Under the pieces are notes generated by a model. The model worked only from the letters and a program-made list of their open reading frames with translations. It was not told the DNA's origin and did not search any database. Below are positions 108 to 22,273 of a DNA stretch of 24,000 nucleotides, one piece after another. Origin of the DNA: Thomasclavelia sp. (GTDB taxonomy: Bacteria > Bacillota_I > Bacilli_A > Erysipelotrichales > Coprobacillaceae); NCBI GenBank assembly GCA_020025035.1, contig JAHHSU010000005.1, forward strand, positions 5,886 to 29,885, given 5' to 3'. A program made the position numbers and the translations under genes. The number at the start of each line of letters is the position of its first letter. Position 1 is the first letter of the stretch.

Positions 108-159
108 CATAGCGTTTTTAAATGAATTAGTATATAATTTACAAAGAAGAGGTGATAAA

Positions 160-3190: not shown

Positions 3191-3193
3191 GCA

Positions 3194-3916: not shown

Positions 3917-3918
3917 AA

Positions 3919-4635: not shown

Positions 4636-4865
4636 ATAAACTATAAGCAAAAATATACTAATAAGTACATTGCAAATATCATTATTTTTACAGGGGTATA
4701 TGTTTCTTTGTAAAATAAGATGATTGAATTTCTTGTAGATTATATTCCATACTATTTAAATATTGAAGATGTTATAACATGAATCATCATTATAAAATTC
4801 TAAATGATATTGTTTAAACATTAGGGGCATAGACCATGTATAAACGTTATAACATCGAATCAGTA

Positions 4866-4874
4866 TGTTATAAT
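4866..4874 (+). promoter_or_regulatory. Extended -10 element (TGTTATAAT) upstream of the response-regulator gene
   Basis: TGnTATAAT match about 34 nt upstream of ATG 4908. The -35 is weak (GTTATA at 17-nt spacing). It is embedded in an inverted repeat (see findings). Confidence 0.4.
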
Positions 4875-4907
4875 ACGTTTATGATTTTATCGAAAGGAGG
4901 AGGTAAA

Positions 4908-8974: not shown

Positions 8975-10063
8975 CTAATCTATCGTTTGATGCTCAACAG
9001 AATTATTACGTAATTCTAATCTTGAATGCACATGTATCTCAATATTATTTATTGTAACAGGATGATTACTAAGCTTGTGTAATTCAAGGTAATCAATATT
9101 GTTTTCTAATAATTTAGTATAGGTTGATACAATGGATTGTTTCATGTATTTGTTAATTGTTGTGATTACCTCTTCTTCTTTTAAATTAGATGGATAGGAT
9201 ATTAGAGATAATGAAACATGGAGATGAATATGAAATTTATTATTTTTAAATGATGTTTTAGTTTTTGAACTAAGAATATCATAATTTATTCCAAAATCTT
9301 GATATGGAATTGTTTGAGTAACATTATTGTTGCTTTTTTTATGAATATAGGTTAATCCATAAATATCTTGAATATTAAGTGTTGTTGTTTCTTTGTTATT
9401 TAGGAATGTTAACTTGTCAATTATAAATTTTTTTGCGGGATTTTCTTCTCCTTCATTAATTACACTTGAATTTTCTATTGTAGATAAGTTTGGGATAATA
9501 CTAATACTGTTATCTCCTGCATAAGTTTTCATAATTTCTAACATAGGTGTTGGAACATCTAATGCATTAAGATTTGTTGGATTATTATATGCAATTAATG
9601 AAAAATAAGGGGAACTTGTAATACTATGTTTTACTTGGTAGATATCATTAATATCTTGAGTATTGATAAATAGTGATGTTGATAATTTTAGGTGTTGATC
9701 GTGTACAACATAATTAAGTACTTCTTTTAATGGGATTGGATCTAAAACGTTTGGTGTAACTAAAAGCGTGTCTACATGATCTAACATAAATTCCATTCGC
9801 ATTTTATTTTCTAGTTTTTGGATTGCTTCTCCTATAGAATTTCCAGATGTATGAATGATTAAGATTTCTCCTTTATTACTAGAAGATTCTACTTCTGGTT
9901 TAGAAAGAGAGTTAGGATTGATAATTTGAAAGGTAATTGTATATTGACTATCTTGATAATCGATTGCCATAGATGTAGGAAATACTAAAGTATAAAGATC
10001 TTTTAAGTCGCTACATCCTGTTAGAATAGTGATAACTATAAATAAGATAGTAAGTTTTTTCAT
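8975..10063 (-). CDS. Germinant receptor C subunit (GerAC-family lipoprotein)
   Basis: Lipobox ILTGC with Cys17. SD AAGGTG upstream. ATGA overlap with the preceding A-subunit gene. Size and composition are typical of Ger(x)C. Confidence 0.82.
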   Translation of the reverse strand: MKKLTILFIVITILTGCSDLKDLYTLVFPTSMAIDYQDSQYTITFQIINPNSLSKPEVESSSNKGEILIIHTSGNSIGEAIQKLENKMRMEFMLDHVDTLLVTPNVLDPIPLKEVLNYVVHDQHLKLSTSLFINTQDINDIYQVKHSITSSPYFSLIAYNNPTNLNALDVPTPMLEIMKTYAGDNSISIIPNLSTIENSSVINEGEENPAKKFIIDKLTFLNNKETTTLNIQDIYGLTYIHKKSNNNVTQTIPYQDFGINYDILSSKTKTSFKNNKFHIHLHVSLSLISYPSNLKEEEVITTINKYMKQSIVSTYTKLLENNIDYLELHKLSNHPVTINNIEIHVHSRLELRNNSVEHQTID

Positions 10064-11412
10064 AATACACCTTGCTTTCGTTTAAAATTACTAGATTGAA
10101 ATATTTTAAAGAAATTTTTAAAACTAATAAATAAGGCAGGATTTACCATATCTTTATCAAATGACTTTTGAGATGTAATATATAAACATATCGCAATAGA
10201 TGATAATATAAAACCATATAGTCCTAGAGTTGCACTAGCTATAAAGATAAATATTTTAAATATTGTGATGATACTATTGAATGATATATTATTAGATACA
10301 GAATAATTACATATAATATTAATCGCACATAAAAACATAATATCATATCCAATAAATCCACTAGCGATTACATTTTGTCCTAGCAATACACTACCAATGA
10401 CTAATAATGTAGATGAGATTCCTGCTGGTAGCCTTGTACCTGCTGCTCTAAACAATTCAAATAAAAGAGTCGCAAATATGATTTCTAGATAAACTGGTAA
10501 GACCATCCCTTTTTGGATACTTAATATATTGGATAACCATAAAATAGGCAATTCCTGAGGATGAAAACAATAAATCGCAATAATAAATCCCATTAAGAAA
10601 ATAGATACTACAATACTAAAAAAATACAGAAAACGATTTAAAAAAGTAGTAATATAGTGTTCATTAATATCGTCTGAATAGTCTAAAAATAATGAAATTG
10701 TAGCAGGTCCAATATTAGCATTATTAAAGTTATCAACAAAGATTACAAATTGTCCTTTTAATAAGCTTAATACACAATAATCTGGTCTCATTGTATAGGT
10801 CATTTCAGGAAACAATTTATTTTTTTTACTATACAAAAGTCCTCTTAATTGACCAGAACTTGTAATATCTATATCATTTATTTCATTTAGCTTACAATTT
10901 AGTTTGTGTAGTATATGTTTAGGACATTTATCTTGCATATATAAAAGTCCAATTTGTGTTTTTGTATTTTTTCCTAGTGTCATTTTTTGGTAGCATAAAT
11001 TGGCAGTTTTAAGTCTTTTTCTAATTAATGCAACGTTTGTTTCGAGATTTTCAATAAAACTATCACGTGGGCCTGTAATTGTAATATCTATCATAGAAGA
11101 ATCAGGTGTTCTTTTTGGGACACTAATGACATTAATTGTATAATAGTTATGTTGATAATAGAATAAACATAATCCACTAAAGACTTTTTCATCAAATTGT
11201 TCGATTGTAAGTTCATCCATTTTTTGAATCGTTAAAATGGATGATGTAATAGAATCAATAACTACATTACGATTAATTTTCCCAATAATTTCGTTTTCAA
11301 TTTCTTTAATATCACATAAACCTTCACAATATATTAATGAATACCATTCATTATTTTTAAATACTACATCTTTACAGTTTTGAAAGTGATTTTGTAGTTG
11401 TTTTATGTCCAT
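10060..11412 (-). CDS. Germinant receptor A subunit (GerAA/GerKA family)
   Basis: SD AAGGAG before ATG 11412. Soluble N-terminal domain followed by the C-terminal multi-TM region characteristic of GerA-family A subunits. Confidence 0.88.
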   Translation of the reverse strand: MDIKQLQNHFQNCKDVVFKNNEWYSLIYCEGLCDIKEIENEIIGKINRNVVIDSITSSILTIQKMDELTIEQFDEKVFSGLCLFYYQHNYYTINVISVPKRTPDSSMIDITITGPRDSFIENLETNVALIRKRLKTANLCYQKMTLGKNTKTQIGLLYMQDKCPKHILHKLNCKLNEINDIDITSSGQLRGLLYSKKNKLFPEMTYTMRPDYCVLSLLKGQFVIFVDNFNNANIGPATISLFLDYSDDINEHYITTFLNRFLYFFSIVVSIFLMGFIIAIYCFHPQELPILWLSNILSIQKGMVLPVYLEIIFATLLFELFRAAGTRLPAGISSTLLVIGSVLLGQNVIASGFIGYDIMFLCAINIICNYSVSNNISFNSIITIFKIFIFIASATLGLYGFILSSIAICLYITSQKSFDKDMVNPALFISFKNFFKIFQSSNFKRKQGVL

Positions 11413-12409
11413 AAAGTACGCTCCTTAGTTTGAGTATTAATAAAGTAATGTCGCATAATAGAGATATAATAATAAAGCCAATAGTAAAATTAGCAACTAA
11501 ATGATTGTGGGACAATAGATAAATAAGTATCAAAGAGCACACAAAGATAAACAAATATGGGAGTTTTGGATTAGTATAAAGACGTTGAAGTAATTTAATA
11601 TTAATTGCAATTTTACAAAAACCACTAATCACATAATAAAAAAGTACAGGAAAGTTTATGTGACCTATATATTGTCCAAAATAAATCATATTATGACTTT
11701 CAAAAAATGGATAAACAATAATCTTTAATACTCCTCTAAATTCATTTAGATGAATAATGGAACGAGCAATAATAAAGAGTAAAATAATAAATAAATATTT
11801 ATAATATGTTTTTTTACTGATAGGAACTTCATAAATTTTAGGTAATGTAAAAATAGAAAATGATTCAAAATAAAGTAATACAGATAATAATAATGCATTT
11901 ATATTAAAATGAAATTTTGGCATATCATGATGTAAAAAAGGATAATATAATAATTTTATTTTGAAGGCAAAATATACTAACAAAAAAATACTAAATAAAA
12001 TAAACATTAGGTTAAATCCTTTATAAATATTAAAAGTAGGTATTTTGATAATATAGAAAACTAGTAAAGACAAAGATAAAACAATGATATAAATAGGAGT
12101 ATCAGTTAACCAATGTACTTCCACAAAGTCACATATAATTAAAAAAGAAAGAAGTGTTGTAACAGTTATATAAATAAATAATATTTTTTTGATTATCGGT
12201 GTTATTTTATATGACATTGCTTGTTGGTAAAATCGGTATACAAGAGGCGATGTCATTCCAATAAGTAGCAAGGTAGGAAATACGTAGTATATAAAGCTAT
12301 CTCCAACTATTAGATAAAGCGTATTAATAATAATTTTGGATAAAACAAATGATGTGGAAATTAATGCTAATATAAAATAAGACTGATTAATAATTTTATT
12401 TTGATTCAT
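11372..12409 (-). CDS. Germinant receptor B subunit (GerAB family, APC-superfamily-like permease)
   Basis: About 10 TM segments. The track start (12418) is a GTG without an SD. ATG 12409 is preceded by AAGGTGA at good spacing, so I prefer MNQNKIIN... as the N-terminus. The 3' end overlaps the A-subunit gene by 41 nt. Confidence 0.82.
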   Translation of the reverse strand: MNQNKIINQSYFILALISTSFVLSKIIINTLYLIVGDSFIYYVFPTLLLIGMTSPLVYRFYQQAMSYKITPIIKKILFIYITVTTLLSFLIICDFVEVHWLTDTPIYIIVLSLSLLVFYIIKIPTFNIYKGFNLMFILFSIFLLVYFAFKIKLLYYPFLHHDMPKFHFNINALLLSVLLYFESFSIFTLPKIYEVPISKKTYYKYLFIILLFIIARSIIHLNEFRGVLKIIVYPFFESHNMIYFGQYIGHINFPVLFYYVISGFCKIAINIKLLQRLYTNPKLPYLFIFVCSLILIYLLSHNHLVANFTIGFIIISLLCDITLLILKLRSVLYGHKTTTKSLSKL

Positions 12410-12589
12410 ATTTTTCACCTTGTTGAATTATGGACAATTATTTGTTATTTATAATTCAATATTTAAAATTCACTACTTTTTATAGTAAAATCATAAAAAA
12501 AGTGTTCAAAATTTAAATTTTGCAATTTGCTTTGAGTAAAATAATTTGTTACAAATAAATCATAAGTATTTACAGAAAGGAAGATGTAT

Positions 12590-12889
12590 ATGGTTAATGA
12601 AGTAATACTTGTGGGAAAATTAAAAGATATTATAGGATATAAAAAATTCAATGATAGAAAATGGTTTATAATTACGATGATGGTTGAAAAACCATTACGT
12701 AATGAAAATGGAGAATATGATTATGAAGAAATTGAATGTGCGTTATGGCAAGGAGATGCAGATCAATTTATTGATAATCAATATATGTCAAAAATGTATA
12801 GTATTAAAGGTAGAATTAAAAAAATGTGGGATGGTCAAAATTATGTTGCGGTTGAGAAAATTAGAGGAATAGATAGTCATTTTGATTAG
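12590..12889 (+). CDS. Short SSB-like OB-fold protein lacking an acidic C-terminal tail
   Basis: Pattern N-x-V-x-LVGKL ... EIECALWQGDA ... IKGRIK mirrors bacterial SSB (NRVVLVGRL ... INCVTWRRQAE ... VDGRLQ). I prefer ATG 12590 (SD GAAAGGAAG about 9 nt upstream) to the track start 12584. Confidence 0.55.
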   Translation: MVNEVILVGKLKDIIGYKKFNDRKWFIITMMVEKPLRNENGEYDYEEIECALWQGDADQFIDNQYMSKMYSIKGRIKKMWDGQNYVAVEKIRGIDSHFD

Positions 12890-12943: not shown

Positions 12944-14749
12944 ATGAGCATAGATCAATCTAAAATACGTAATTTTTCTATTATAGCTCATATTGATCAT
13001 GGAAAATCAACCTTAGCAGATTGTATATTACAATTAACTGGTGCAGTTGCAAATCGTGATATGAAAGCACAGTTATTAGACAGTATGGATTTAGAAAGAG
13101 AACGTGGAATTACAATAAAATTAAATGCTGTACAATTAAATTATACTGCAAAAGATGGACAAACTTATTTATTACACCTCATTGACACTCCAGGTCATGT
13201 TGATTTTACTTATGAAGTATCAAGGTCATTAGCAGCGTGTGAGGGAGCTATCTTAGTAGTTGATGCTGCTCAAGGAGTAGAAGCACAGACTTTAGCAAAT
13301 GTCTATTTGGCTTTAGATAATAATTTAGAAATTATTCCTGTAATCAATAAAATTGATTTACCTAGTGCAGATCCTCAAAGAGTAATAACTGAAATTGAAG
13401 ACGTAATTGGATTGCCTGCAAGTGATGCACCACTTATTTCAGCAAAAACCAATCTAAATATAGATTCCGTATTGGAAGCAATTGTGCAAAATGTTCCAGC
13501 CCCTTCTGGAAGTGTAGATCATCCAACTCAAGCCTTAATATTTGACTCTTTCTATGATGCATATCGTGGAGTTATTGTACTTATTAGAATAGTAGAAGGA
13601 AAAATAAGAGTTGGAGATAAAATAAAATTTATGGCAAGTAATGCTGTATATGAGGTACTGGAAGTTGGAGTGAATACACCTGCAGAGGTAAAAAAAGATG
13701 AACTCATTACAGGAGAGGTTGGATGGCTTTCTGCATCAATCAAATCCATTAAGGATATTCATGTAGGAGATACTGTTACTGTTATTGGAAATGAATGTAA
13801 AAATCCATTACCTGGATATCGAAAACTAAATCCAATGGTGTATTGTGGATTATATCCAGTTGATAATGCTAGATACAATGATTTGCGTGAAGCGTTAGAA
13901 AAAATGCAATTAAGTGATTCTGCACTTGTTTTTGAACCTGAAACATCACAAGCATTAGGATTTGGATTTCGATGTGGTTTTTTAGGCTTATTACACATGG
14001 ATGTAATTGAGGAAAGATTAGAGCGTGAATTTGGTCTAGATTTAATTGCTACTTCACCTTCAGTAATTTATCATGCACATTTAACGGATCATAAAATGAT
14101 TGAAATTGATAATCCAGCTAAGTTACCAGAAGTACAAAAAATTCATTATATTGAAGAACCTTACGTAAAGGCAGCAATTATGACACCAAACGACTATGTA
14201 GGTCCTATTATGGAGCTTTGTCAAAGTAAACGTGGAGAATATGTAGATATTCAATATATTGATGATTCTAGAATGAATGTCATTTATTTACTTCCATTAG
14301 CTGAAATCGTATATGATTTTTTTGATCGCTTGAAGTCATGTTCAAAGGGATACGCATCATTTGATTATGAATTACACGGGTATAAAGAAAGTAAATTAGT
14401 CAAGATGGATATTTTACTTAATGGCGAAATCGTAGATGCATTATCATCTATTGTCCATAAAGATTTTGCGTATCATAGAGGTAAAATTATATGTGAAAAG
14501 TTAAAAGATATCATACCACGACAAATGTTTGAAGTACCTATTCAAGCGGCAATACAAGGAAAAGTTGTAGCTAGAACAAATATTAAAGCAATGAGAAAAA
14601 ATGTTCTTGCTAAATGTTATGGTGGCGATATTACTCGAAAAAAGAAACTATTAGAAAAACAAAAAGAAGGAAAAAAACGTATGAAAGCAGTAGGAAGTGT
14701 AGAAATTCCTCAAGAAGCATTTATGGCTGTTTTATCCGTAGATGAGTAG
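12944..14749 (+). CDS. lepA: Elongation factor 4 (translational GTPase LepA)
   Basis: [19 protein letters not shown] (G1), DTPGHVDF (G3), NKID (G4) and the LepA-specific C-terminal domain. I prefer ATG 12944 after the SD AGGTG to the track GTG 12935. Confidence 0.97.
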
Positions 14750-14779
14750 AACTGTATCAATGACAGTTCTTTTTTTTTG
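14748..14779 (+). terminator. Rho-independent terminator of lepA
   Basis: Stem AGAACTGT (14748-14755) / ACAGTTCT (14763-14770), then a run of 9-10 T. Confidence 0.85.
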
Positions 14780-14875
14780 TTTTGCTTAATAAAATATTAT
14801 TAATATACAAAATAAACAGTTTGAAATAAAAGGATAATGTACAATTTTTTCATAAATAAATAGAAAAAATTAATC

Positions 14876-14904
14876 TTGTATTCTAATAGAATGTTTCATA
14901 TACT
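14876..14904 (+). promoter_or_regulatory. Sigma-A-type promoter of the PTS operon (TTGTAT-17 nt-TATACT)
   Basis: -35 TTGTAT at 14876-14881, an exact 17-nt spacer and -10 TATACT at 14899-14904, about 65 nt upstream of the regulator start. The spacer contains the palindrome ATTCTA-A-TAGAAT. Confidence 0.5.
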
Positions 14905-14911
14905 GTAATAA

Positions 14912-14925
14912 AGAAAGCGCTTTAT
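14912..14925 (+). promoter_or_regulatory. Candidate catabolite-responsive element (cre, CcpA site)
   Basis: AGAAAGCGCTTTAT matches the cre consensus TGWAANCGNTNWCA at 11 of 14 positions. It has a perfect palindromic core AAAGCGCTTT, is GC-rich against an AT-rich background, and sits just downstream of the predicted -10. Confidence 0.4.
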
Positions 14926-14968
14926 ATTTTGTGTAAGTTTTATTGAATTAGAAAGGAGGGTACTATTA

Positions 14969-16852
14969 GTGCGCAAACTTCAAATTTTAGAACTATTAAT
15001 ACAACAAGATCAGTATACGACTAGTCAAGAATTAAGCAAAATATTTGGAGTATCTACAAGAACTATTTACAATGATATAAAAACATTATCTAGCGACGGT
15101 GAAAAAAATGGCTTTGAATTAATTTTAAAACGTAATTTAGGATATTATATTCAAGTTACCAATCAAGCTAAATTACAGGAATATATTAACTCAATGACAG
15201 TATACAAAGAATATTCAATAAAAGATAGATATGTATATATACTATCAAGACTTTTATTATCAAATCATTTTATGACACAAGAAACACTTGCCAATGAATT
15301 ACAAGTAAGTCAATCATTGATAAAAATTGATTTAAAAAAAATTGAGTCTTATTTTCAAAATACAAATATAAAACTGCTTAAAAAACCATATTATGGAATT
15401 CTTCTAAAGGTTACAAATGAGAATAGAATTAAATTGATTTTTCATTTGTATGATTTTAAAAATAGTCTTATTTGTCAAACAATTGATTCATTTTATAAAA
15501 AAGAATTTTGTAATATACAAACTATTTTAATTACGTTATTGAATGAAAACAATCTATATTGTAATGATAACGAGTTTCACAAAATGGATAAAATGTTGAA
15601 AATTATTATCTATTTATCTATACACAGTGTATTAGAAAATGAAAAAAATACATGTAAGGTGGATATCAATTATTATAAAATTGCAAAAGCATATAGTAAA
15701 AAAATAAATAAAATATATGGAATATGTTTATTAGAAAATGTTATATGGTTAATTGCAAAAATCATTAGAGATAATACTAGACAAGTACAAAGTAGTATCC
15801 TTTACAAGGAAGAACTTCAACGTGAAATTAATGAATTTTTTATGGTAGTGGATAAGGAATATCAAACAAAATTTTTAGAAGATAAACAATTTATAGATTT
15901 ATTGTATTCACATATATCACTACTATTAGAACGGTTAAATAATAGTATCACTTTAAGAAATCCATTAATTGTTGAAATTAGTGCCAAATACCCATTTATA
16001 TTTAATTTAGCTATTCAATTAGCATTTAGGCTAAGTGACAAGTTTGGAGTAACAATTTCACATGATGAAATAGGATTTATTGCAACCCATTTTGCTGCTC
16101 ATATGGAAAAGGAGAATAACCTATATCTTGAAAATATTCATCGAATTGCAGTTATATGTTGTTCTGGGGGAGGAGCATCATATTTAATAAAACTAAAACT
16201 TGAAACGCTTTTTCATAGCTCTGATATTAGAATCTTTTCGATAGTAGATTTAGATAAAGTTAAACAGTTTTTACCTAATATAGTTTTTACAATTGCAAAA
16301 GTTGATTTAGATATTGCTGCTCCAATTATACAAATTAATGAATTATTAGATGATAATGATATGATAAAAATCAAAAATAGATTTAGTTTAAATACTGATG
16401 ATGATATTGAAAATTTGTCTAATCAAATATTTAAAAAAGAATTATTTAAGTGTATTGATAAAGATGTAAATTATATCGATTTATTAGAAAATATGGGAAA
16501 GGCAATAGAAATGCAAGGATATGCTCCTAAAGGATATTTGGACAAGGTATTTCAAAGAGAAGAAGTATTATCTACTATCTATCAAAATGGTGTAGCTATC
16601 CCTCATCCTATTGATATGTGTGGAGTAGAAAATGTGGTTAATGTTGCAATTTTAAATAAACCTATTACTTATGAAAATAAGGAAGTCAGAATTGTTTTTA
16701 TGATATCACTTGCAAAAGGAAGTAGTCAGATTCATCAACATATTACAAAAGTCTTACTTGATATCATCTCAAATCCATTAAAACTTGATCAATTAATTAA
16801 ATCAAAAACTTTTGATGAATTTATGATTCAAATAAAACATAATGATTGGTAA
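14969..16852 (+). CDS. LicR/CelR/MtlR-type PRD-containing transcriptional activator (HTH, PRD1, PRD2, EIIB-like and EIIA-like domains)
   Basis: GTG start after the SD AAGGAGGG. N-terminal HTH (TSQELSKIFGVSTRTIYNDIKTL). PRD histidines (LYSHISLLLERL; ATHFAAHMEK). EIIB-like Cys segment IAVICCSGGGASYL. C-terminal EIIA(Fru/Mtl)-like segment GVAIPHP. Confidence 0.85.
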   Translation: MRKLQILELLIQQDQYTTSQELSKIFGVSTRTIYNDIKTLSSDGEKNGFELILKRNLGYYIQVTNQAKLQEYINSMTVYKEYSIKDRYVYILSRLLLSNHFMTQETLANELQVSQSLIKIDLKKIESYFQNTNIKLLKKPYYGILLKVTNENRIKLIFHLYDFKNSLICQTIDSFYKKEFCNIQTILITLLNENNLYCNDNEFHKMDKMLKIIIYLSIHSVLENEKNTCKVDINYYKIAKAYSKKINKIYGICLLENVIWLIAKIIRDNTRQVQSSILYKEELQREINEFFMVVDKEYQTKFLEDKQFIDLLYSHISLLLERLNNSITLRNPLIVEISAKYPFIFNLAIQLAFRLSDKFGVTISHDEIGFIATHFAAHMEKENNLYLENIHRIAVICCSGGGASYLIKLKLETLFHSSDIRIFSIVDLDKVKQFLPNIVFTIAKVDLDIAAPIIQINELLDDNDMIKIKNRFSLNTDDDIENLSNQIFKKELFKCIDKDVNYIDLLENMGKAIEMQGYAPKGYLDKVFQREEVLSTIYQNGVAIPHPIDMCGVENVVNVAILNKPITYENKEVRIVFMISLAKGSSQIHQHITKVLLDIISNPLKLDQLIKSKTFDEFMIQIKHNDW

Positions 16853-16865
16853 TAAGGAGAATAAT

Positions 16866-17915
16866 ATGAATACAAAATTATTAGAAAAATTATCTAATGC
16901 AGATGCAATTGCAGCAAATGAACAGGAAGTAAGAGATATTCTTTACAATGAGCTAGAAAATGATTGTGATTTGATAGATTATGATGGATTAGGAAGTATT
17001 ATCTTTAAAAAAGAAGGGAATCAAAAAGGTCCTAAAATTATGCTTTGTGCACATATGGATGAAGTGGGGTTTATGGTGCGAAGTATTTCACAAAATGGAC
17101 ATATTTTGTTAATGAATATTGGATCGGTAAAACCATTAGCTCAATTTGTTCAGGAAGTAAAAATTACTACAAGTACTGGTAAAAAAATATATGGTATATT
17201 ACACGCTAAATACATTGATAATTTTGCTAAAGATGTTTATGTAGATATAGGTGTCGATAGTCAAAAAGAGGTAGGTGAATTAGGAATAGAAATAGGAGAT
17301 ATGGTTACTTATAGTACCCAATTTAAACATCTTCATCAAGATTACATGATTGGAAAGGCATTTGATGATCGTCTAGGATGTTATGTTATTACTAGGGTTT
17401 TAAAAAGATTGCGTCAAAAAAATCATCCTAATGTTGTTTATGGGGTGATGACTTCTAGTGAAGAAGTTGGTATTCGTGGAGCGAAAACTGCAACATATAA
17501 AATTAATCCTGATATTGTAATCCCTATTGATGTTGCCTGTTTTTCTAATGAATGGATTAAAGATCATACCAATCAAAGACAGATTGGAAAAGGGGTTATT
17601 CTTACTCATTATGATAAGACGTTAGCACCAAATCGTTATTTACTAAATCTATTTAAACAAACATCAAAAAAATTAAATAAACCTATCCAATTAGATATGT
17701 TTAATACAGGAGGGACAGATGGAGGTGAAGCACATAAATGTTATGATGGAAAACCCACAGTAGTTACATGCATTCCAGTAAGATATGGACATTGTGCCTA
17801 TTCGATCGCAAAACAAAAGGATATTGAAGATATGATTGATATTTTAGAGGAATTAATATTAAATTTTGATTTTAATCAGTATTATCAATCTATTAATTTT
17901 AAGGGAGGAAAATAA
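16866..17915 (+). CDS. M42-family metallo-aminopeptidase (FrvX/YpdE/CelM-like; often mis-annotated as endoglucanase)
   Basis: ATG 16866 after the SD AAGGAG. Motifs CAHMDEVGF, FDDRLG, SSEEVGIRGA and RYGH are all intact. Confidence 0.9.
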   Translation: MNTKLLEKLSNADAIAANEQEVRDILYNELENDCDLIDYDGLGSIIFKKEGNQKGPKIMLCAHMDEVGFMVRSISQNGHILLMNIGSVKPLAQFVQEVKITTSTGKKIYGILHAKYIDNFAKDVYVDIGVDSQKEVGELGIEIGDMVTYSTQFKHLHQDYMIGKAFDDRLGCYVITRVLKRLRQKNHPNVVYGVMTSSEEVGIRGAKTATYKINPDIVIPIDVACFSNEWIKDHTNQRQIGKGVILTHYDKTLAPNRYLLNLFKQTSKKLNKPIQLDMFNTGGTDGGEAHKCYDGKPTVVTCIPVRYGHCAYSIAKQKDIEDMIDILEELILNFDFNQYYQSINFKGGK

Positions 17916-17916
17916 A

Positions 17917-18240
17917 ATGACAGAACAAGAACAACAAATTGTAGGGATTATTGCTTCATCTGGGCAGAGTAAATCTAAAGCTTTTGAAGCATTAAATATG
18001 GTAAAAATTGGGGAATATGATAAAGCTAGGCAACTAATAGAAGAAAGTAGAAAACTAGACGTTGATGCGCATCTTATTCAAACTCAATTAATTCAAGCAG
18101 AATTTGATGAAACAAAAGATAGTTTACCAATCACATTATTAATGGTTCATGCACAAGATCACTATATGGTAAGTCAATTAGCACGTGATTTAATTGAATC
18201 GTTAATTAATGTATTTGAAGCAAAGGAAAGGGGAGAATAA
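17917..18240 (+). CDS. PTS lactose/cellobiose-family EIIA component
   Basis: ATG 17917 after the SD GGGAGGA. The conserved MVHAQDH segment carries the phosphorylatable His. Size 107 aa is typical. Confidence 0.9.
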   Translation: MTEQEQQIVGIIASSGQSKSKAFEALNMVKIGEYDKARQLIEESRKLDVDAHLIQTQLIQAEFDETKDSLPITLLMVHAQDHYMVSQLARDLIESLINVFEAKERGE

Positions 18241-18241
18241 A

Positions 18242-18577
18242 ATGAAAATATTATTATGTTGTGCAGGAGGATTTTCTACTAACATGTTAATGCAAAACAT
18301 GAAAAAAATTGTAAAGGATAGTGAAAAACTAAATGAAGAAGATTTTAGTTTTACTGCTATTCCAGCAGATGCATTAGAAGAGGAAATTGATCATTGGGAT
18401 ATTGTTTTAGTAGGACCACAAGTTTCTCATAAGATTGATATGATTGAAGCAATATGTAAACCTAAAAATGTTCCATTTACGATTATAGATAAAGATGTAT
18501 ATGGAAAAATGGATGGTGCTACGGTTTTAAAATTAGCTTTAGTAACTTATAAAAAACATCAATTAGCAAATAGTTAG
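18242..18577 (+). CDS. PTS lactose/cellobiose-family EIIB component
   Basis: ATG 18242 after the SD GGGGAG. N-terminal active-site Cys motif MKILLCCAGGFSTNMLM. About 111 aa. Confidence 0.9.
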   Translation: MKILLCCAGGFSTNMLMQNMKKIVKDSEKLNEEDFSFTAIPADALEEEIDHWDIVLVGPQVSHKIDMIEAICKPKNVPFTIIDKDVYGKMDGATVLKLALVTYKKHQLANS

Positions 18578-18602
18578 TGCTAGATAGGGGGGGAGAAAAA
18601 TA

Positions 18603-19934
18603 ATGTTTAAAAAATTTGAAGCATTTATGAATAAATGGTTAATGCCTTTTGCTCGTAAGGTTGATAAGCAACGACATTTAAGTGCAATTAAGGCATCTAT
18701 GGTTGCAATGACACCTTTTACAATTTTAGGAAGTTTCTTTGCGATACTTCCAGCATTACCAAATATGATAGGTATTAACAATCCAGTTAGTCAATTTATT
18801 ATAAATAATGCAGAGTTATTTGATTTACCTGTGACATTGTCCATTGGGATGATGAGTTTGTATGTAACAATGTGTATTGCATATAATTTAGGAAATCATT
18901 ATAAATTATATATTCCTGGATGTATTTCATTATCTACGTTTGCATTTTTATGTGTTGCTGTAGAAGTAGTTGATGGAGGAATAAGTATTACTAATTTTGG
19001 TGCAAAAGGGTTATTTTGTGCAATGTTAGTTGGAATGGGTGCTACTGAATTATATCGTTTATGTAAAGAAAAAAATCTTACAATTCGAATGCCAGAAGGA
19101 GTGCCAGATTTTGTTTCAAAATCATTTGAATTAATTCCAACAACAATTATTGTGGCTGGTACTTTTATTCTTGTTCGTTTTGTATCATTAAATGTATTTC
19201 ATTCATTACCACCTCAAATTTTAACAATCTTTTTATCTCCATTAGTTGGTTCAATGGATAATCCATGGGCAGTATTATTCTTACACTTTATGATCTGCTT
19301 AATCTTCTTTTTTGGGATTCACTCTTCTGTTTTTGGTCCAATTACACGTCCAATTATGGCAACATTTATTGCAGAAAATATTGCAGCAATGCAAGCTGGA
19401 CAACCTTTACCACATTTTTATACAGCTGGTACATCTAGTGCATTTTTTGGATTTACAGGTGCAGGAATTACTATTGGTTGTGTAGTTGCATGTATGATGT
19501 CTAAATCTAAACGTTATAAAAAAATTGGTCAGGTTTCGTTATTTCCATCATTATTTGGTATTAATGAGCCAATATTATTTGGTGCTCCAATTATTTTAAA
19601 TCCTATTATGTTTATCCCATTTGTATTTGGTGGTGCAATTATAGGAACTTTACCAATGTTTTTAATGCATTATGGCTTATTAGGTAAACCATTTTTCGAT
19701 CCACCTTATGTTGGTGTTTTCTTAGAAGGATTTTTAACAAATGGAGATTGGCGAGTATTCCTTGTGTGTGGATTACAGTTGATATTAGCAATTTTAGTTT
19801 ATTATCCTTTCTTTAAAATTATGGAAAGACAAGAATTAAAAGAAGAAGCAAGTCGAAAAGAAAAAGAAGAGATCAAGCAAATATTTAGTGAAAAAGACAA
19901 CGATATTTTAAATGAATTAGATTTAGATTTTTAA
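18603..19934 (+). CDS. PTS lactose/cellobiose-family EIIC permease
   Basis: SD GGGGGGGAG. N-terminal pattern ...MPFARKVDKQRHLSAIKASMVAMTPFTILGSFF typical of CelB/LicC. About 10 TM segments. 443 aa. Confidence 0.92.
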   Translation: MFKKFEAFMNKWLMPFARKVDKQRHLSAIKASMVAMTPFTILGSFFAILPALPNMIGINNPVSQFIINNAELFDLPVTLSIGMMSLYVTMCIAYNLGNHYKLYIPGCISLSTFAFLCVAVEVVDGGISITNFGAKGLFCAMLVGMGATELYRLCKEKNLTIRMPEGVPDFVSKSFELIPTTIIVAGTFILVRFVSLNVFHSLPPQILTIFLSPLVGSMDNPWAVLFLHFMICLIFFFGIHSSVFGPITRPIMATFIAENIAAMQAGQPLPHFYTAGTSSAFFGFTGAGITIGCVVACMMSKSKRYKKIGQVSLFPSLFGINEPILFGAPIILNPIMFIPFVFGGAIIGTLPMFLMHYGLLGKPFFDPPYVGVFLEGFLTNGDWRVFLVCGLQLILAILVYYPFFKIMERQELKEEASRKEKEEIKQIFSEKDNDILNELDLDF

Positions 19935-19957
19935 AAGGCAATTATTATATTGCCTTT
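19934..19957 (+). terminator. Hairpin between EIIC and the M24B peptidase gene (weak or partial terminator, or a processing site)
   Basis: Perfect 9-bp stem AAAGGCAAT / ATTGCCTTT with loop TATTAT, followed by ATTATT rather than a clean T-run. Confidence 0.3.
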
Positions 19958-19976
19958 ATTATTAGGAGGAAGCAAA

Positions 19977-21044
19977 ATGGATAGAACTAAAAAGTTTACT
20001 CAAGTATGCCTAGAACGTCAATTAGATGCAGTATTGATTCATAGTAAAACAAACAAACAATATCTTGGTGCATTAACTGGAAGTGGAGTAAAGGTTTTAA
20101 TCACTAAAGATAAAGTGTACCAAATTATGGATGGTAGATATATTAATGAAGCAAAGATAAAGACTCCTACATTTAACAATATTGTATATAAGCAAGGATC
20201 ATCTTATATAGATGCAGTAAAAGAAATAGTTGGTACAAATGCAGTGATTGGGATTGAGGGGAATCATGTTAGTGCATGTGAATATCATCAAATGCTCCAA
20301 TCAAACTTGAATATAGAGTTATTATCAAATGATTTAGAAATCATAAGAAGATGTAAAGATGAAAATGAAATTGCTTGTATTAAAGAAGCATGCAAGATTA
20401 CAGATCAAGTTTTTGAAGAACTACTTAAATTGATTAAAGTAGGAATGAGTGAAATAGAAATAGCTAATCATATCGAATTTTTAGCTAAACAAAATGGTGC
20501 TACATCAATGGCATTTGATACTATTGTAGTTTCTGGTACTAGAGGTGCATTACCACATGGAAGACCTACTAGTAAACGAGTAGAAAAAAATGAAATGGTT
20601 ACAATAGATTTTGGAGTAGTATATCATGGTTATCAATCTGATATGACTCGAACAATATGCATAGGTAAACCTAAAGATGAATTAAAAAAAATCTATGATA
20701 TTGTTTGTCATGCACAATGTGCAGGTATTCAATATATTAAACCAGGTATTACTGGAAAAGAAGTAGATCAATATGTTCGTGATATTATTGAAAAAGCAGG
20801 ATATGGAAAGTATTTTACGCATGGATTAGGTCATGGTATTGGATTAGGTGGAGGAGAATTACCTTTACTAAATCAATATAGTGAAACTGTATTAGAAGAA
20901 GGCATGGTGATGTCTTGTGAACCAGGGATTTATATTCCTAATGTTGGTGGAGTAAGAATTGAAGATGATGTTGTTATTCAAAATGGAAAAGCAGTAGTGT
21001 TAAATCAAACTACTAAAAAATTAATTATTCTTAAGGAGGATTAG
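19977..21044 (+). CDS. M24B-family Xaa-Pro peptidase (PepQ/PepP/YpdF-like)
   Basis: ATG 19977 after the SD AGGAGGA. Pita-bread metal-site motifs DFGVVYHGYQSDMTRT, HGLGHGIGL, CEPGIY and VRIEDDV are intact. Confidence 0.9.
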   Translation: MDRTKKFTQVCLERQLDAVLIHSKTNKQYLGALTGSGVKVLITKDKVYQIMDGRYINEAKIKTPTFNNIVYKQGSSYIDAVKEIVGTNAVIGIEGNHVSACEYHQMLQSNLNIELLSNDLEIIRRCKDENEIACIKEACKITDQVFEELLKLIKVGMSEIEIANHIEFLAKQNGATSMAFDTIVVSGTRGALPHGRPTSKRVEKNEMVTIDFGVVYHGYQSDMTRTICIGKPKDELKKIYDIVCHAQCAGIQYIKPGITGKEVDQYVRDIIEKAGYGKYFTHGLGHGIGLGGGELPLLNQYSETVLEEGMVMSCEPGIYIPNVGGVRIEDDVVIQNGKAVVLNQTTKKLIILKED

Positions 21045-21047
21045 CCC

Positions 21048-22232
21048 ATGAAATATAACTTTGACAAGGTAATTGATCGAAAAAAAAGTAAATGTAGAAA
21101 ATGGGATAATGGTATACTTCAAAATAAATTTAATGTAGATCAAAATGCAATTCCAATGGATCTTGCTGACTTAGATTTTGAATGTGCTCCTGCTATTAAA
21201 AAAGCATTAGTTGATCGTGCATTGTTAGGGGATTATGGTTATTCATATTGTTATGATGAGTATTATGATGCGGTTATTAACTGGAATAAAAGAAGATTTC
21301 ATGTAGATATAAAAAAAGAGTGGATTAAGTTAACGTTTGGTACTTGTGGGACATTGCATTATATTGTTCAATGTTTTTGTAAACAAGGTGAAGCTGTAAT
21401 GATTAATACACCTGCATACGAACCTTTTGCTAAAGCGGTATATGAAGCAGGATGTCAACTAGTATGTAATCCATTAAAATTAGATAATATGAGATATTAT
21501 TTTGATTTTAAGTTAATGGAAAAGCAAATCGTAGAACAAAATGTTAAGTTATTTATACTATGCTCTCCACAAAACCCAAGTGGTAGAGTGTGGACAAAAG
21601 AAGAGTTACACAAGCTAAGTGAAATATGTATAAAACATGATGTATTAGTGGTTTGTGATGAAATACATCGAGACATTGTGTTTAAAAAGGATAGTTTTAC
21701 TACGTTATGGAATGCACATGAAGATATTATTCATCACTCTATTATGTGTGTATCACCAAATAAAGGATTTAATTTAGGTGGATTAAAATCAAGTTACATT
21801 ATAATAGAAAACAGTAACATACGTCAAAAAATGTTAGAGTATCTTGAAAAAGTATATGTTACAAGTCCTCATGTTTTTGTCATTCCAGCAACTATTGCAG
21901 CTTATAATGAGAGTGAAGAATGGTTAGATCAATTAACAAAATATATTGAAGAAAACTTTGAGATTCTTTATCACTGGTTTGAAAAATATATGCCAAAAGC
22001 AAAAGTAATGAAAGCAGATTCTAGTTTTTTATCATGGATTAATGTAAGTGATGTTTTTGAAAACGAGAATCAAATGCAAGAATTTTTTGTAAAAGCTAAT
22101 CTAACAATGGTAGTAGGAAGTTATTTTGTTGCTGATGGATTAGGTTGGGTAAGATTAAATGTTGGTACACAAAAAGAAATATTAATCGAAGCATTAAATA
22201 GAATGCAAGCTGTCTTAGAACACAATATGTAA
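21048..22232 (+). CDS. PLP-dependent class I/II aminotransferase-fold C-S beta-lyase (MalY/PatB type)
   Basis: N-terminal signature NFDKVIDRKKSKCRKWD typical of MalY/PatB. PLP-Lys motif SPNKGFNLGGLK. 394 aa. Confidence 0.88.
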   Translation: MKYNFDKVIDRKKSKCRKWDNGILQNKFNVDQNAIPMDLADLDFECAPAIKKALVDRALLGDYGYSYCYDEYYDAVINWNKRRFHVDIKKEWIKLTFGTCGTLHYIVQCFCKQGEAVMINTPAYEPFAKAVYEAGCQLVCNPLKLDNMRYYFDFKLMEKQIVEQNVKLFILCSPQNPSGRVWTKEELHKLSEICIKHDVLVVCDEIHRDIVFKKDSFTTLWNAHEDIIHHSIMCVSPNKGFNLGGLKSSYIIIENSNIRQKMLEYLEKVYVTSPHVFVIPATIAAYNESEEWLDQLTKYIEENFEILYHWFEKYMPKAKVMKADSSFLSWINVSDVFENENQMQEFFVKANLTMVVGSYFVADGLGWVRLNVGTQKEILIEALNRMQAVLEHNM

Positions 22233-22235
22233 TAT

Positions 22236-22273
22236 AAAAAATACAAAATGTATCATTCATTTTGTATTTTTTT
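22236..22273 (+). terminator. Rho-independent terminator ending the PTS operon
   Basis: Stem AAAAATACAAAATG / CATTTTGTATTTTT with loop TATCATT and a trailing T-run. Confidence 0.8.

Follow-up and report, generated by a model that had tools for sequence, protein, structure and literature searches.

Pairings of PTS genes with peptidase or lyase genes are on record in Escherichia coli K-12, where the annotation confirmed all of the parallels that a preliminary description of our locus had named (frvABXR, the sgc operon, fryBC-ypdFE-fryA and malXY). The fryA-ypdE-ypdF-fryC-fryB operon (ypdDEFGH) likewise carries M42 and M24B peptidases inside a PTS operon, but its transporter belongs to the fructose rather than the Lac family and it has neither a lyase nor a PRD activator. 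In malX-malY a PTS permease gene adjoins a gene for a PatB/MalY-family beta-lyase; here, however, MalX is a glucose-family IIBC, peptidases are absent, and MalY is known chiefly for repressing MalT activity. In frv and sgc the PTS is paired with M42 alone. The same enzyme families are found in E. coli with PTSs of three transporter families other than Lac (fry-ypdEF, frvX, sgcX, malXY).

Related chemistry also occurs outside PTS operons. The thioalcohol pathway of Staphylococcus hominis (DtpT, PepA, PatB) reportedly applies a peptidase and then a PatB-family C-S lyase to an imported cysteine conjugate, and in lincosamide biosynthesis LmbF, a PLP lyase of this fold, acts on S-glycosyl-L-cysteine. 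Neither system involves a PTS or phosphorylation, and what they process are not nutrients but odour precursors or antibiotic intermediates. A proven bacterial route for a sugar-amino acid conjugate is the AlfH/AsdA/PepV pathway, whose cluster encodes, besides sugar enzymes, the PLP enzyme AsdA, which has the class I/II aminotransferase fold, and the peptidase PepV. In that pathway, however, the permease AlfH and not a PTS takes up the conjugate, bond cleavage falls to a fucosidase and a glycosylasparaginase rather than a lyase, and PepV is dispensable.

The type of IIA/IIB/IIC transporter found in our locus, with its phosphorylation sites kept, is shared with chbBCARFG of E. coli and chb of L. 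paracasei (PMC12791066). In the chb operons the imported disaccharide is cleaved by an operon-encoded phospho-glycosidase, a GH4 enzyme (ChbF) in E. coli and a GH170 enzyme (ChbE) in L. paracasei (PMC12791066), whereas the cassette described here encodes none. The same cassette has been drawn, without explanation, in Latilactobacillus sakei LT-13 (LACBS_00568-00576; Kato & Oikawa 2018, PMC5845896, Fig. 1), which settles whether the architecture had been described, a question left open in the preliminary description. The L. sakei cluster is a strain-specific insertion of about 8 kb encoding a PRD regulator, an aminopeptidase, Lac IIA, IIB and IIC, an RDD protein, an aminopeptidase and MalY; its physiological role was given as "under investigation", and the purified MalY, a PLP beta-lyase, was studied as a racemase (PMC5845896). 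No paper explaining the cassette was found in the open-access full-text literature searched. In the L. sakei version (subtype 2) a gene for an RDD-family membrane protein separates IIC from M24; ours (subtype 1) lacks the RDD gene and has a lyase of the PatB branch.

Organisation of the operon

In the window, meaning the whole 24,000-nucleotide stretch of Thomasclavelia sp. DNA that was analysed, a seven-gene PTS unit lies at 14969-22232 on the plus strand, in the order regulator, M42, IIA, IIB, IIC, M24B and C-S lyase. Its features are:

14748..14770, plus strand: intrinsic terminator of the upstream lepA gene (terminator scan), upstream boundary of the unit
14876..14904, plus strand: candidate weak promoter, TTGTAT-17 nt-TATACT, read from the sequence
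14912..14925, plus strand: cre-like palindrome AGAAAGCGCTTTAT, candidate CcpA site between the candidate promoter and the ribosome-binding site
14969..16852, plus strand: PRD transcriptional activator, LicR/MtlR type (HTH_11, Mga, PRD and EIIA_2 domains, Pfam)
16842..17915, plus strand: M42 metallo-aminopeptidase, YpdE type (PF05343, E 3e-78)
17917..18240, plus strand: PTS enzyme IIA, lactose/cellobiose family (PF02255)
18242..18577, plus strand: PTS enzyme IIB, lactose/cellobiose family (PF02302)
18603..19934, plus strand: PTS enzyme IIC, lactose/cellobiose family (PF02378; TIGR00410)
19934..19957, plus strand: intercistronic hairpin AAGGCAAUU-loop-AUUGCCUU, 9 bp, just past the IIC stop codon
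19977..21044, plus strand: M24B Xaa-Pro peptidase, YpdF-like/prolidase-like (PF00557 and PF01321, Creatinase_N)
21048..22232, plus strand: PLP-dependent C-S beta-lyase, PatB/MalY family (TIGR04350, 359 bits against a cut-off of 340)
22236..22272, plus strand: Rho-independent terminator closing the unit, a 15-bp AT-rich stem followed by a U-run

Pfam and other HMM models reproduced the seven co-directional genes of the preliminary description, in place and on the plus strand, and assigned all seven proteins to the families proposed there. The regulator and M42 genes overlap, or are 13 nt apart if M42 starts at ATG 16866, which is probably its true start; the remaining gaps are 1, 1, 25, 42 and 3 nt, matching those first reported, including the 42-nt gap before the M24B gene. 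The lepA terminator region (14740-14785) folds into an 8-bp stem followed by a T-run, and the closing terminator is stable (−13.4 kcal/mol, z −5.8), with none of 200 shuffled sequences equalling it. Between the two terminators the seven genes make up a single tight unit.

Of the promoter-to-terminator unit originally proposed, the terminator was confirmed and the promoter was not. A sigma-70 consensus scan found no promoter on the plus strand between 14771 and 14968, and the candidate at 14876, from which the unit had been said to start, matches the consensus at 8 of 12 positions, under the threshold of that scan. Weak promoters are typical of activator-dependent genes. The regulator is the first cassette gene in 75 related loci (22-41% identity). 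The palindrome AGAAAGCGCTTTAT is the sole match in the window to TGAAAGCGCTTTCA at three or fewer mismatches, where about one is expected by chance. Of 69 related loci, 24 have a cre-like site in the 300 nt preceding the regulator gene, the background in random 360-nt windows being 2.7%, and with this enrichment the operon looks catabolic.

Transporter and enzymes

The PTS proteins keep their catalytic residues when aligned with E. coli ChbA and ChbB and with ChbC (3QNQ). IIA is 42% identical to ChbA and keeps the HAQDH motif, its histidine aligned with ChbA His89; Cys7 of IIB, a protein with a median identity of 71% across related loci, aligns with ChbB Cys10. IIC scored 281 against TIGR00410 (cut-off 236) and passed none of the substrate-specific equivalog models. 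Its sole PDB relative is ChbC, whose His250 and Glu334, aligned here with His240 and Glu322, were reportedly placed by Cao et al. in 2011 at the phosphorylated sugar hydroxyl. The IIC proteins of related loci are about 25-32% identical to E. coli ChbC and, judged by sequence, the window IIC falls in a distinct, as yet uncharacterised Lac-family subfamily.

Alignments to E. coli YpdE, YpdF and MalY upheld the earlier statement that the active-site motifs of all three enzymes are intact. The M42 protein is 43% identical to YpdE and keeps the metal-ligand motifs HMDEVG, FDDRLG, SSEEVG, D and GHCA; it scored 458 bits against NF007421 (cut-off 412), the YpdE equivalog model, which YpdE matches too, and its nearest solved structure is 1YLO. 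The M24B protein shares 40% identity with YpdF, keeps the metal-ligand positions D, D, H, E and E, and falls under the YpdF equivalog cut-off (286 against 393); its solved relatives are 3Q6D, 1WY2 and 5CNX. The lyase is 30% identical to MalY, with Lys239 aligned to the PLP lysine Lys233 and the TPAY, NP.G and DEIH motifs kept. Its solved relatives are 4DGT, 6QP3, 9K71 and 1D2F, and the S. hominis PatB structures (6QP1-3) are among its PDB neighbours. It shares 26-30% identity with the MalY-like subtype 2 lyases, which are themselves 36-42% identical to E. coli MalY (52% for the Vibrio scophthalmi copy). The E. coli parallels are closer than had been claimed: the M42 protein is a YpdE-type orthologue, the M24 protein resembles YpdF at the identity given above, and the subtype 2 lyases are MalY-like.

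RidA genes lie just after the lyase or just upstream of the regulator in six loci, and LDH-family genes adjoin the cassette in eight, one of them (L098) overlapping the lyase stop codon. These companions point to a beta-elimination that gives pyruvate. For the L. sakei lyase (Ls-MalY), beta-lyase activity has been measured, and its Km for L-Cys is 11.5 mM (PMC5845896), a value so high as to suggest that L-Cys is not the enzyme's real substrate.

The preliminary description had also considered that the enzymes act as regulators, as MalY does on MalT. E. coli MalY is indeed annotated as a negative regulator of MalT. A similar idea is that M42 is a cryptic (phospho)glycosidase, in line with its old annotation as "endoglucanase CelM"; SgcX and several M42 PDB entries still carry the label endoglucanase. 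However, the metal ligands and the PLP lysine are all conserved, and structural and enzymatic work on M42 proteins has found aminopeptidase activity. The intact active sites weaken the regulatory proposal, as do the RidA and LDH partners, which make sense only for a working lyase; in addition, no MalT homologue was found in the L. sakei genome by its authors (PMC5845896). We consider both ideas very improbable.

Recurrence of the gene set

A scan of species-representative genomes returned 153 relatives of the window IIC, and 80 of these loci were fetched. The same seven genes in the same order were present in 69, while six loci were broken by contig ends and five were variants. The co-occurrence of M42, M24B and lyase genes with a Lac-family IIC, for which the preliminary description had proposed a survey, extends to well over 100 bacterial species. 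Hosts of the ordered set include Clostridium, Romboutsia, Peptacetobacter, Clostridioides, Enterococcus, Streptococcus, Granulicatella, Abiotrophia, Lacticaseibacillus, Erysipelotrichaceae, Collinsella and Olsenella. Because this order recurs across so many genera with unrelated flanks, those of the closest relative included, the arrangement is far beyond chance.

In eight distant versions the order is shuffled and the set is kept, with M42 in 8/8, M24 in 6/8 and the lyase in 6/8. The set survives such shuffles at about 45-60% IIC identity in Companilactobacillus, Vibrio scophthalmi, Cetobacterium, Carnobacterium and an E. raffinosus megaplasmid, and at least four different gene orders were seen. 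The lyase is kept in 78 of the 80 loci; in the distant set it is absent from the loci of Brevinema (L095) and Vibrio sp. 404 (L096). M24 is missing from four loci (L037, L068, L095, L097) and M42 from none; in Brevinema a minimal IIB-IIC-M42 unit is found.

No further ORF of at least 60 aa lies between the seven genes of the operon, which rules out a glycoside hydrolase, of whatever family, hidden among them. Across 82 related loci (the 80 fetched ones, L001 and L003), GH1 occurred within 10 kb in three and GH4 in one, neither ever inside the cassette. The preliminary description was right that the operon has no GH1 or GH4 enzyme.

These data bear on whether the genes do two separate jobs under one regulator, with the PTS importing an ordinary beta-glycoside, cleaved by a glycosidase encoded elsewhere, and the peptidases and lyase scavenging peptides and sulfur amino acids. 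Stand-alone roles of such enzymes are well known (TET aminopeptidases, prolidases, cystathionine beta-lyase), and the Ls-MalY activities were measured on free amino acids. The hairpin in the 42-nt gap (−10.7 kcal/mol, z −1.8) also sets the PTS genes apart from those for M24 and the lyase, both here and in many relatives: the IIC-M24 spacer is at least 40 nt in 28 of 73 related loci, 26 of these 28 fold with z < −2, and a related palindrome occurs in eight loci, in this spacer only. In the other 45 of 73, however, the spacer is just 0-20 nt, and the genes on either side are therefore probably co-transcribed. Moreover, unless a substrate is shared, it is difficult to account for co-inheritance as a mobile unit, in one order in most loci and through several others; glycosidase genes are hardly ever close by; and, counting the window, the same enzyme families accompany PTSs of four transporter families. 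We find two separate jobs a doubtful explanation.

Candidate substrates

The operon probably degrades a sugar bound to an amino acid or a short peptide. We propose that the PRD activator would activate the operon whenever its cognate PTS is engaged, and that CcpA would repress it while better sugars are present. The Lac-family IIA, IIB and IIC would import the conjugate and phosphorylate the C6-OH of its sugar. The YpdE-type M42 aminopeptidase would then strip N-terminal residues, and the YpdF-like M24B enzyme would cleave an Xaa-Pro bond impassable to ordinary aminopeptidases. On a glycosyl-Ser/Thr or glycosyl-Cys with a free alpha-amino group, the MalY/PatB lyase would carry out a PLP-dependent alpha,beta-elimination, giving sugar 6-phosphate (or a thio-sugar phosphate) and 2-aminoacrylate, which would yield pyruvate and ammonia. 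Base-catalysed beta-elimination is the standard route for releasing O-glycans from Ser/Thr. Against the proposal, we know of no PLP enzyme that eliminates an O-glycosyl or phospho-glycosyl group from serine, and to our knowledge the characterised Lac-family transporters all carry plain beta-glycosides. The sugar-amino acid or glycopeptide substrate of the preliminary description gains support from co-inheritance through shuffles, from RidA and LDH genes by the lyase and from the cre-like sites; the nature of the substrate itself, like every enzymatic step, is what we infer from this context. We are least sure that it is the lyase, and not M42, that frees the sugar.

The pattern of gene loss, with M42 always kept, is no less compatible with M42 as the main deconjugating enzyme than with the lyase in that role. 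A tentative alternative is thus an N-aminoacyl or N-peptidyl amino sugar, or another amide- or ester-linked amino acid-sugar, from which M42, aided by M24B, would free an amino-sugar 6-phosphate; the lyase would do no more than convert the Cys or Ser set free (or a Cys conjugate) to pyruvate, ammonia and sulfide. The Brevinema unit and the pairing of M42 alone with a PTS in frv and sgc favour this, and M42 enzymes, routinely assayed on aminoacyl-arylamides, accept non-peptide leaving groups. Amino-sugar/tagatose catabolism genes (AgaS-like, KbaY- or KbaZ-like, PfkB) lie nearby in six lineages and could indicate a peptidase-released, galactosamine-type product. In 11 fetched Peptostreptococcaceae loci, an AgaS-like/PfkB/class II aldolase operon just upstream of the cassette has neither transporter nor deacetylase, as expected were free galactosamine-6-P the product, and AgaS-like or KbaZ-like genes are close to the cassette in Companilactobacillus and Longicatena. 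However, the Peptostreptococcaceae neighbours may reflect shared ancestry rather than function, abundant natural N-aminoacyl amino sugars in guts or foods are not obvious, and the almost universal retention of a Ser/Cys-specific lyase is left unexplained, as is the E. coli pairing of a PTS with MalY alone.

The upstream AgaS-like gene of Peptostreptococcaceae encodes a SIS-domain protein, which could instead suggest a glycated (Amadori/Heyns) peptide or a muropeptide, trimmed by the peptidases and finished by a deglycase, etherase or amidase encoded elsewhere, with the lyase acting as racemase or lyase on freed amino acids. PTS routes are known for fructoselysine-type compounds and MurNAc, although those known for Amadori compounds are of the mannose family. 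Cleavage of L-Ala-D-Glu bonds is not known for M42 or M24B enzymes. The SIS protein (394-407 aa, sized in L005 and L013) is AgaS-like, at 41-43% identity to E. coli AgaS, and not FrlB-like; such a gene was not found in the other lineages, bar two Companilactobacillus loci that carry one about 6 kb downstream. Deglycase, MurQ and amidase are absent from every cassette. Ls-MalY does racemise many amino acids, Ala included, but with a Km of 150-170 mM (PMC5845896). A glycated or muropeptide substrate therefore seems unlikely.

We thus favour, with a probability of roughly 35%, a self-contained, horizontally mobile catabolic operon for a sugar covalently joined to an amino acid or short peptide, from which the lyase releases the sugar phosphate. 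The lyase would then fill the role that a GH1 or GH4 phospho-glycosidase plays in ordinary cellobiose and lactose operons.

Gene content of the operon

Seven co-directional genes lie between the terminator of lepA (14748-14770), which is directly upstream, and a strong, AT-rich closing terminator at 22236-22272 (-13.4 kcal/mol, z -5.8 on folding), in a window of ~28% G+C. Profile searches assigned all seven to families as the preliminary description had named them, and its intergenic gap sizes were reproduced from the gene coordinates. Its view that the active sites are intact also held, since metal ligands, the PLP lysine and phosphorylation residues are conserved in alignments.

Features of the operon (positions in the window, strand, feature)
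14876-14904, + strand, candidate weak promoter TTGTAT-17-TATACT, below the threshold of the consensus scan
14912-14925, + strand, cre-like palindrome, 3' of the candidate weak promoter
14969-16852, + strand, PRD activator; HTH_11, Mga, PRD and EIIA_2 in the profile search
16842-17915, + strand, M42 peptidase; PF05343; NF007421 458 bits, cut-off 412
17917-18240, + strand, Lac-family IIA; PF02255
18242-18577, + strand, Lac-family IIB; PF02302
18603-19934, + strand, Lac-family IIC; passes TIGR00410, fails all substrate-specific models
19977-21044, + strand, M24B peptidase; PF00557 and Creatinase_N
21048-22232, + strand, PatB-family C-S lyase; TIGR04350 359 bits, cut-off 340

The transporter belongs to the PTS Lac family (TC 4.A.3), with separate IIA (PF02255), IIB (PF02302) and IIC (PF02378) proteins matched at Pfam E-values of 1e-25 to 3e-11; IIC scores 281 bits against TIGR00410 (cut-off 236). 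The phosphorylatable histidine of IIA aligns with ChbA His89, Cys7 of IIB with ChbB Cys10, and His240 and Glu322 of IIC with His250 and Glu334 of ChbC (3QNQ). We take the IIA histidine and IIB cysteine to be the phosphorylatable residues and the IIC histidine and glutamate to lie at the sugar site. By profile scores, none of the PTS proteins of the cassette reached a substrate-specific equivalog model for cellobiose, chitobiose or lactose: IIC scored 281 against a cut-off of 434 for TIGR00359, 187 against 614 for TIGR00394, 130 against 760 for NF007634 and 184 against 503 for NF007157, and IIA and IIB were likewise under the cut-offs of their models.

The M42 protein is matched full-length by PF05343 (positions 1-291 of 292), and its dinuclear metal-ligand motifs are conserved in alignment to E. 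coli YpdE. It passes the curated, YpdE-defined model NF007421 (458 against a cut-off of 412), whereas E. coli FrvX, at just 281, does not; we predict a YpdE-type aminopeptidase. The M24B protein combines the pita-bread domain PF00557 with Creatinase_N (PF01321) and retains the metal ligands D, D, H, E and E of YpdF, scoring under the YpdF equivalog cut-off (286 versus 393). The last gene encodes a member of the PatB/MalY C-S beta-lyases (TIGR04350, 359 bits against a cut-off of 340) with class I fold motifs, in which Lys239 aligns with the PLP-binding Lys233 of MalY and whose PDB neighbours are all C-S lyases.

The domains that define activators of the LicR/MtlR type are an HTH with Mga at the N-terminus, a pair of PRDs, an EIIB(Gat)-like domain and, at the C-terminus, one that resembles EIIA(Mtl/Fru). 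In the regulator of the window, Pfam detected HTH_11, Mga, one PRD (residues 291-377) and EIIA_2 (487-624); the second PRD and the EIIB(Gat)-like domain are below Pfam thresholds, and residues ~395-405 read VICCSGGGAS. A scan of the whole unit found no further ORF of at least 60 aa that fits between the cassette genes, and thus a hydrolase of any family is not hidden there.

The window also holds genes outside the operon. At 64-2099 are a VanY-like D,D-carboxypeptidase and an Asp/Glu racemase, followed at 2489-6865 by an ABC ATPase, two ABC-2 permeases and then a response regulator/histidine kinase pair; the layout of 64-6865 is typical for peptide-antibiotic sensing and resistance modules. 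On the - strand are a GerM-like protein (7400-8362) and a GerA-family germinant receptor operon (8975-12418) comprising GerAC (8975-10063), GerAA (10060-11412) and a 348-aa ORF that lacks a Pfam match and is probably GerAB (11372-12418). The GerM-like gene and the GerA-type operon mark the host as a spore-forming Firmicute. A 101-aa ORF immediately 5' of lepA (12584-12889) also lacks a Pfam match, and the gene for a class B penicillin-binding protein, which has PBP dimerisation and transpeptidase domains, begins 3' of the operon terminator at 22473 and runs past the window end at 24000.

Distribution, variants and control of the cassette

An IIC alignment was used to scan one genome per species (185,579 species). 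This confirmed 153 IIC relatives; 80 loci were fetched, and their ORFs were searched with the seven window proteins. The finding is much more general than the sequence alone could show, the transporter subfamily being present in at least 153 species-representative genomes. The co-occurrence of M42, M24B and lyase genes with Lac-family IIC, which the preliminary description had proposed to survey, proved to be the norm: 69 of the 80 loci share the order regulator-M42-IIA-IIB-IIC-M24-lyase. Six of the 80 are cut by contig ends, three have IIA and M42 swapped (Companilactobacillus, Latilactobacillus), two lack M24, and in Vibrio scophthalmi the genes are rearranged.

Relatives of the window IIC with 73-88% identity occur in Clostridium baratii, C. 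thermobutyricum, Sarcina, Romboutsia, Amedibacillus and Erysipelothrix, a level of conservation that is unusual between hosts so distant. Median identity to the window proteins was 71% for IIB, 70% for IIC, 59% for IIA, 54% for the lyase, 50% for M42, 47% for M24 and 34% for the regulator. Flanking genes are unrelated from genus to genus, the closest relative shares the cassette alone with the window at the DNA level, and in Erysipelothrix larvae an IS21 element adjoins it. The cassette is a conserved, mobile unit. Plasmid carriage was considered and dropped, as plasmid matches were confined to Enterococcus megaplasmids typed as non-mobilizable.

The window represents subtype 1, with a lyase of the PatB branch. 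In subtype 2, IIC is ~50-60% identical to that of the window and the lyase 26-30%; this lyase is MalY-like, with 36-42% identity to E. coli MalY. The PatB model TIGR04350 is nevertheless its best match, and the idea that these PLP enzymes form a different family was rejected. Subtype 2 usually has an eighth gene: in 22 of its fetched loci (within L059-L086) it encodes an RDD-family membrane protein (PF06271, ~200 aa; for example L067, 11379-12041) and is located after the lyase or, in three loci, between IIC and M24.

A third arrangement, regulator-IIA-IIB-IIC-M24-M42-lyase, is found on Enterococcus raffinosus megaplasmids and in Carnobacterium. E. raffinosus has two divergent cassettes, one on megaplasmid pCX012922 (~1 Mb; L091) and a canonical chromosomal one (L024, L030); their gene orders differ, and their IIC proteins are 47% and 73% identical to that of the window. 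Among the further relatives of this third type that were sampled, Cetobacterium has the full gene set in another order still. An uncultured Clostridium carries regulator-IIA-IIB-IIC-lyase-M42 and lacks M24 (L097), Vibrio sp. 404 carries IIB-IIC-M24-M42 and lacks the lyase (L096), and Brevinema has IIB-IIC-M42 and no more (L095). Among eight distant loci, M42 was present in all eight, M24 in six and the lyase in six, making transporter plus M42 the invariant core, to which M24 and the lyase are near-universal additions; M42 is the sole cassette enzyme never lost.

A consensus promoter scan upstream of the regulator gene detected no promoter, and no Rfam family was found in the window. Of 69 loci, 24 have a cre-like site in the 300 nt that precede the regulator, compared with 2.7% of random windows, which fits a catabolic, catabolite-repressed operon. 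Within the unit, the window hairpin after IIC (19934-19957) is weak on its own (z -1.8 on folding). Across related loci, the IIC-M24 spacer is at least 40 nt in 28 of 73, and 26 of these 28 have a strong hairpin directly 3' of the IIC stop codon. The palindrome GGCAAGC-N-GCTTGCC, confined to this spacer in eight Erysipelotrichales loci, resembles the window stem AAGGCAAT...ATTGCCTT.

Loci for the recurrent hairpin between IIC and M24
L001, L003, L008-L012, L018, L033, L051, L059-L066
L069, L071-L076, L080, L084, L085

In the other 45 of the 73 loci the spacer is only 0-20 nt, so that co-transcription of the PTS, M24 and lyase genes is the default; on this ground we rejected the idea that the hairpin splits the unit into two operons. 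Most likely, it adjusts transporter transcript levels relative to those of the enzymes, through partial termination or 3' stabilisation.

Glycosidases, neighbouring genes and known relatives

PTS operons are among the best-understood nutrient systems of bacteria, and as a rule a co-encoded glycosidase cleaves the phospho-sugar that they import. To look for such enzymes, every ORF up to 10 kb from the cassette was searched with E. coli BglA (GH1) and ChbF (GH4) in 82 loci (the 80 from the species scan plus L001 and L003). The preliminary description had held that a phospho-glycosidase routinely included in or adjoining homologous loci would count against its reading. This is not the pattern found: a BglA-like GH1 gene is present in three of the 82 loci and a ChbF-like GH4 gene in one, and neither family occurs inside any of the 82 cassettes. 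A Lac-type chb cluster, that of L. paracasei, can use a GH170 enzyme (PMC12791066); this family is excluded from the cassette itself only, because all seven of its genes are assigned. The co-encoded phospho-glycosidase of characterised cellobiose, lichenan and lactose operons (GH1 or GH4; GH170 in L. paracasei) is therefore absent from the unit. We class the cassette as a catabolic PTS operon whose enzymes include no glycosidase.

Clustering of flanking ORFs across loci revealed few recurrent partners. An operon of PfkB, GntR, AgaS-like SIS and class II aldolase genes lies directly upstream in 11 fetched Peptostreptococcaceae loci from Romboutsia, Peptacetobacter and Clostridioides (L005, 2027-5977; also L013, L016-L019, L021, L022, L034, L042 and L054) and on a separate Romboutsia contig. 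It contains no transporter or deacetylase gene, and could possibly be the downstream pathway for an amino-sugar phosphate freed by the cassette. AgaS-like, KbaZ-like or aldolase genes are also near the cassette in Companilactobacillus, Longicatena, Faecalibacillus and Faecalitalea. These neighbours hint at a galactosamine or tagatose-type product, although part of the pattern perhaps reflects shared ancestry. The AgaS-type genes, together with the invariance of M42, favour the main rival to a lyase-based pathway, in which the conjugate would be an aminoacyl amino sugar and M42 the deconjugating enzyme; PTS-plus-lyase pairs such as malXY speak against this alternative, which we regard as unlikely.

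Other neighbours bear on the lyase. RidA genes (PF01042) adjoin the cassette in six loci overall: immediately 3' of the lyase in Companilactobacillus and Lacticaseibacillus, and immediately 5' of the regulator gene in Peptacetobacter and Faecalitalea. LDH-family genes lie beside it in eight loci, and one additional locus has an LDH gene whose start overlaps the stop codon of the lyase. RidA quenches the 2-aminoacrylate released by PLP-dependent beta-eliminations, and LDH reduces pyruvate; these partners indicate that the cassette enzyme would act as a lyase yielding pyruvate.

In Faecalibacillus (L077-L079, ~17150-19270) a second PatB-like lyase gene, its product 35-37% identical to the window lyase and with a class II aldolase gene directly 3', is found ~4 kb downstream of the cassette. 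In Peptacetobacter hominis (L064, 1332-6065) threonine/serine dehydratase and RidA genes precede the cassette on the same strand, and the opposite strand carries genes for an asparaginase and an AsdA-like 540-aa class I/II PLP enzyme.

The E. coli PTS loci that the preliminary description named as carrying these enzyme families are confirmed by the K-12 annotation: frvA-frvB-frvX-frvR, sgcX-sgcB-sgcC-sgcQ-sgcA-sgcE-sgcR, fryB-fryC-ypdF-ypdE-fryA and malX-malY. In E. coli the families stand beside fructose-, galactitol- and glucose-family PTS; the Firmicute cassette brings them together around a transporter of the Lac family.

Our full-text searches yielded no explanation of the cluster, and a single paper among the results depicts it: Kato & Oikawa 2018 (PMC5845896) describe it in L. 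sakei LT-13 as a strain-specific insertion of ~8 kb. The MalY encoded there is PLP-dependent; it acts as a beta-lyase towards L-Cys (Km 11.5 mM), cystine and cystathionine, and has broad racemase activity (alanine Km 150-170 mM); according to the authors, its physiological role is still being investigated (PMC5845896). Such high Km values suggest that the native substrate has not yet been found. The window lyase is a predicted beta-eliminating enzyme by homology, measured activity coming from this L. sakei homologue of subtype 2 alone. Two other hits, a Turicibacter proteomics match and a C. difficile CcpA paper, concern other loci. As far as literature searches show, the architecture has one published drawing and no published explanation.

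A proposed lyase-based pathway for glycosyl-amino acids

Taken together, the gene content points to one pathway: a sugar-type group translocator, an aminopeptidase and, usually, an Xaa-Pro peptidase and a beta-eliminating lyase, with no glycosidase. The simplest substrate that would employ all of these parts is a glycosyl-amino acid or glycopeptide with a sugar linked to Ser, Thr or Cys. The PTS would import the conjugate and phosphorylate its sugar, M42 would trim the N-terminus and M24B would take off a Pro-containing block. This would present the lyase with a free alpha-amino acid that carries a good leaving group at the beta position, and it could eliminate the sugar phosphate to leave pyruvate and ammonia. 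There are precedents in the chemical beta-elimination of O-glycans, in LmbF, which acts on S-glycosyl-cysteine, and in the peptidase-then-PatB route of Staphylococcus hominis for Cys-Gly conjugates. Dedicated glycoamino-acid pathways do exist in bacteria, as in the alf-2 pathway of L. casei.

We give this model, a glycosyl-Ser/Thr/Cys conjugate from which the lyase eliminates sugar phosphate, a probability of roughly one in three. The broader claim, that some sugar-amino acid or sugar-peptide conjugate is the substrate, we consider on balance probable. The preliminary description had likewise proposed a sugar-amino acid or glycopeptide processed by peptidases and a lyase; the observation behind it is real and statistically robust, and the interpretation, still only plausible, is now better supported.

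Other readings of the same gene set fit less well. That the PTS and the enzymes serve independent functions under one regulator is a poorer fit to the data and rather improbable. Amadori or muropeptide substrates agree with the data more poorly too and seem quite improbable; along with bacillithiol-type substrates they rank low, as the deglycase, glycosidase or amidase they require is never present. Purely regulatory or cryptic-glycosidase roles for the enzymes also match the data less well and are very improbable. Equally remote, or more so, is a radical variant that involves no sugar, in which the Lac-type IIC would phosphorylate the Ser side-chain hydroxyl of a peptide and the lyase would eliminate the phosphate.

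A more specific form of the glycosyl-amino acid model has a PLP beta-lyase replacing the glycosidase: the YpdE/YpdF-type pair would trim 6-phosphorylated O- or S-glycosyl amino acids from Pro-rich glycopeptides, for example fragments of mucin or of the IgA1 hinge, or glycoproteins of bacteria or plants, before alpha,beta-elimination. We put this forward tentatively. If true, it would be a new enzymatic route for glycosidic-bond cleavage in central catabolism, and would provide the first physiological role for E. coli malXY, fryABC-ypdEF, frvX and sgcX.

Because the cassette is compact and mobile, and some L. sakei strains naturally carry it while others lack it, the question can be tested directly. 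In at least 153 species-representative genomes, a transporter subfamily is co-inherited with a pair of peptidases and a C-S lyase, not with a glycosidase; it is carried by Firmicutes, Actinobacteria, Fusobacteria and Vibrio associated with the gut, the mouth, food and fish. The identity of the substrate would account for four E. coli K-12 loci that have long been orphans (malXY, fry-ypdEF, frv and sgc). It would also establish a new type of PTS nutrient, whose source is probably glycoproteins of the host or the diet, and might reveal lyase-based deglycosylation.
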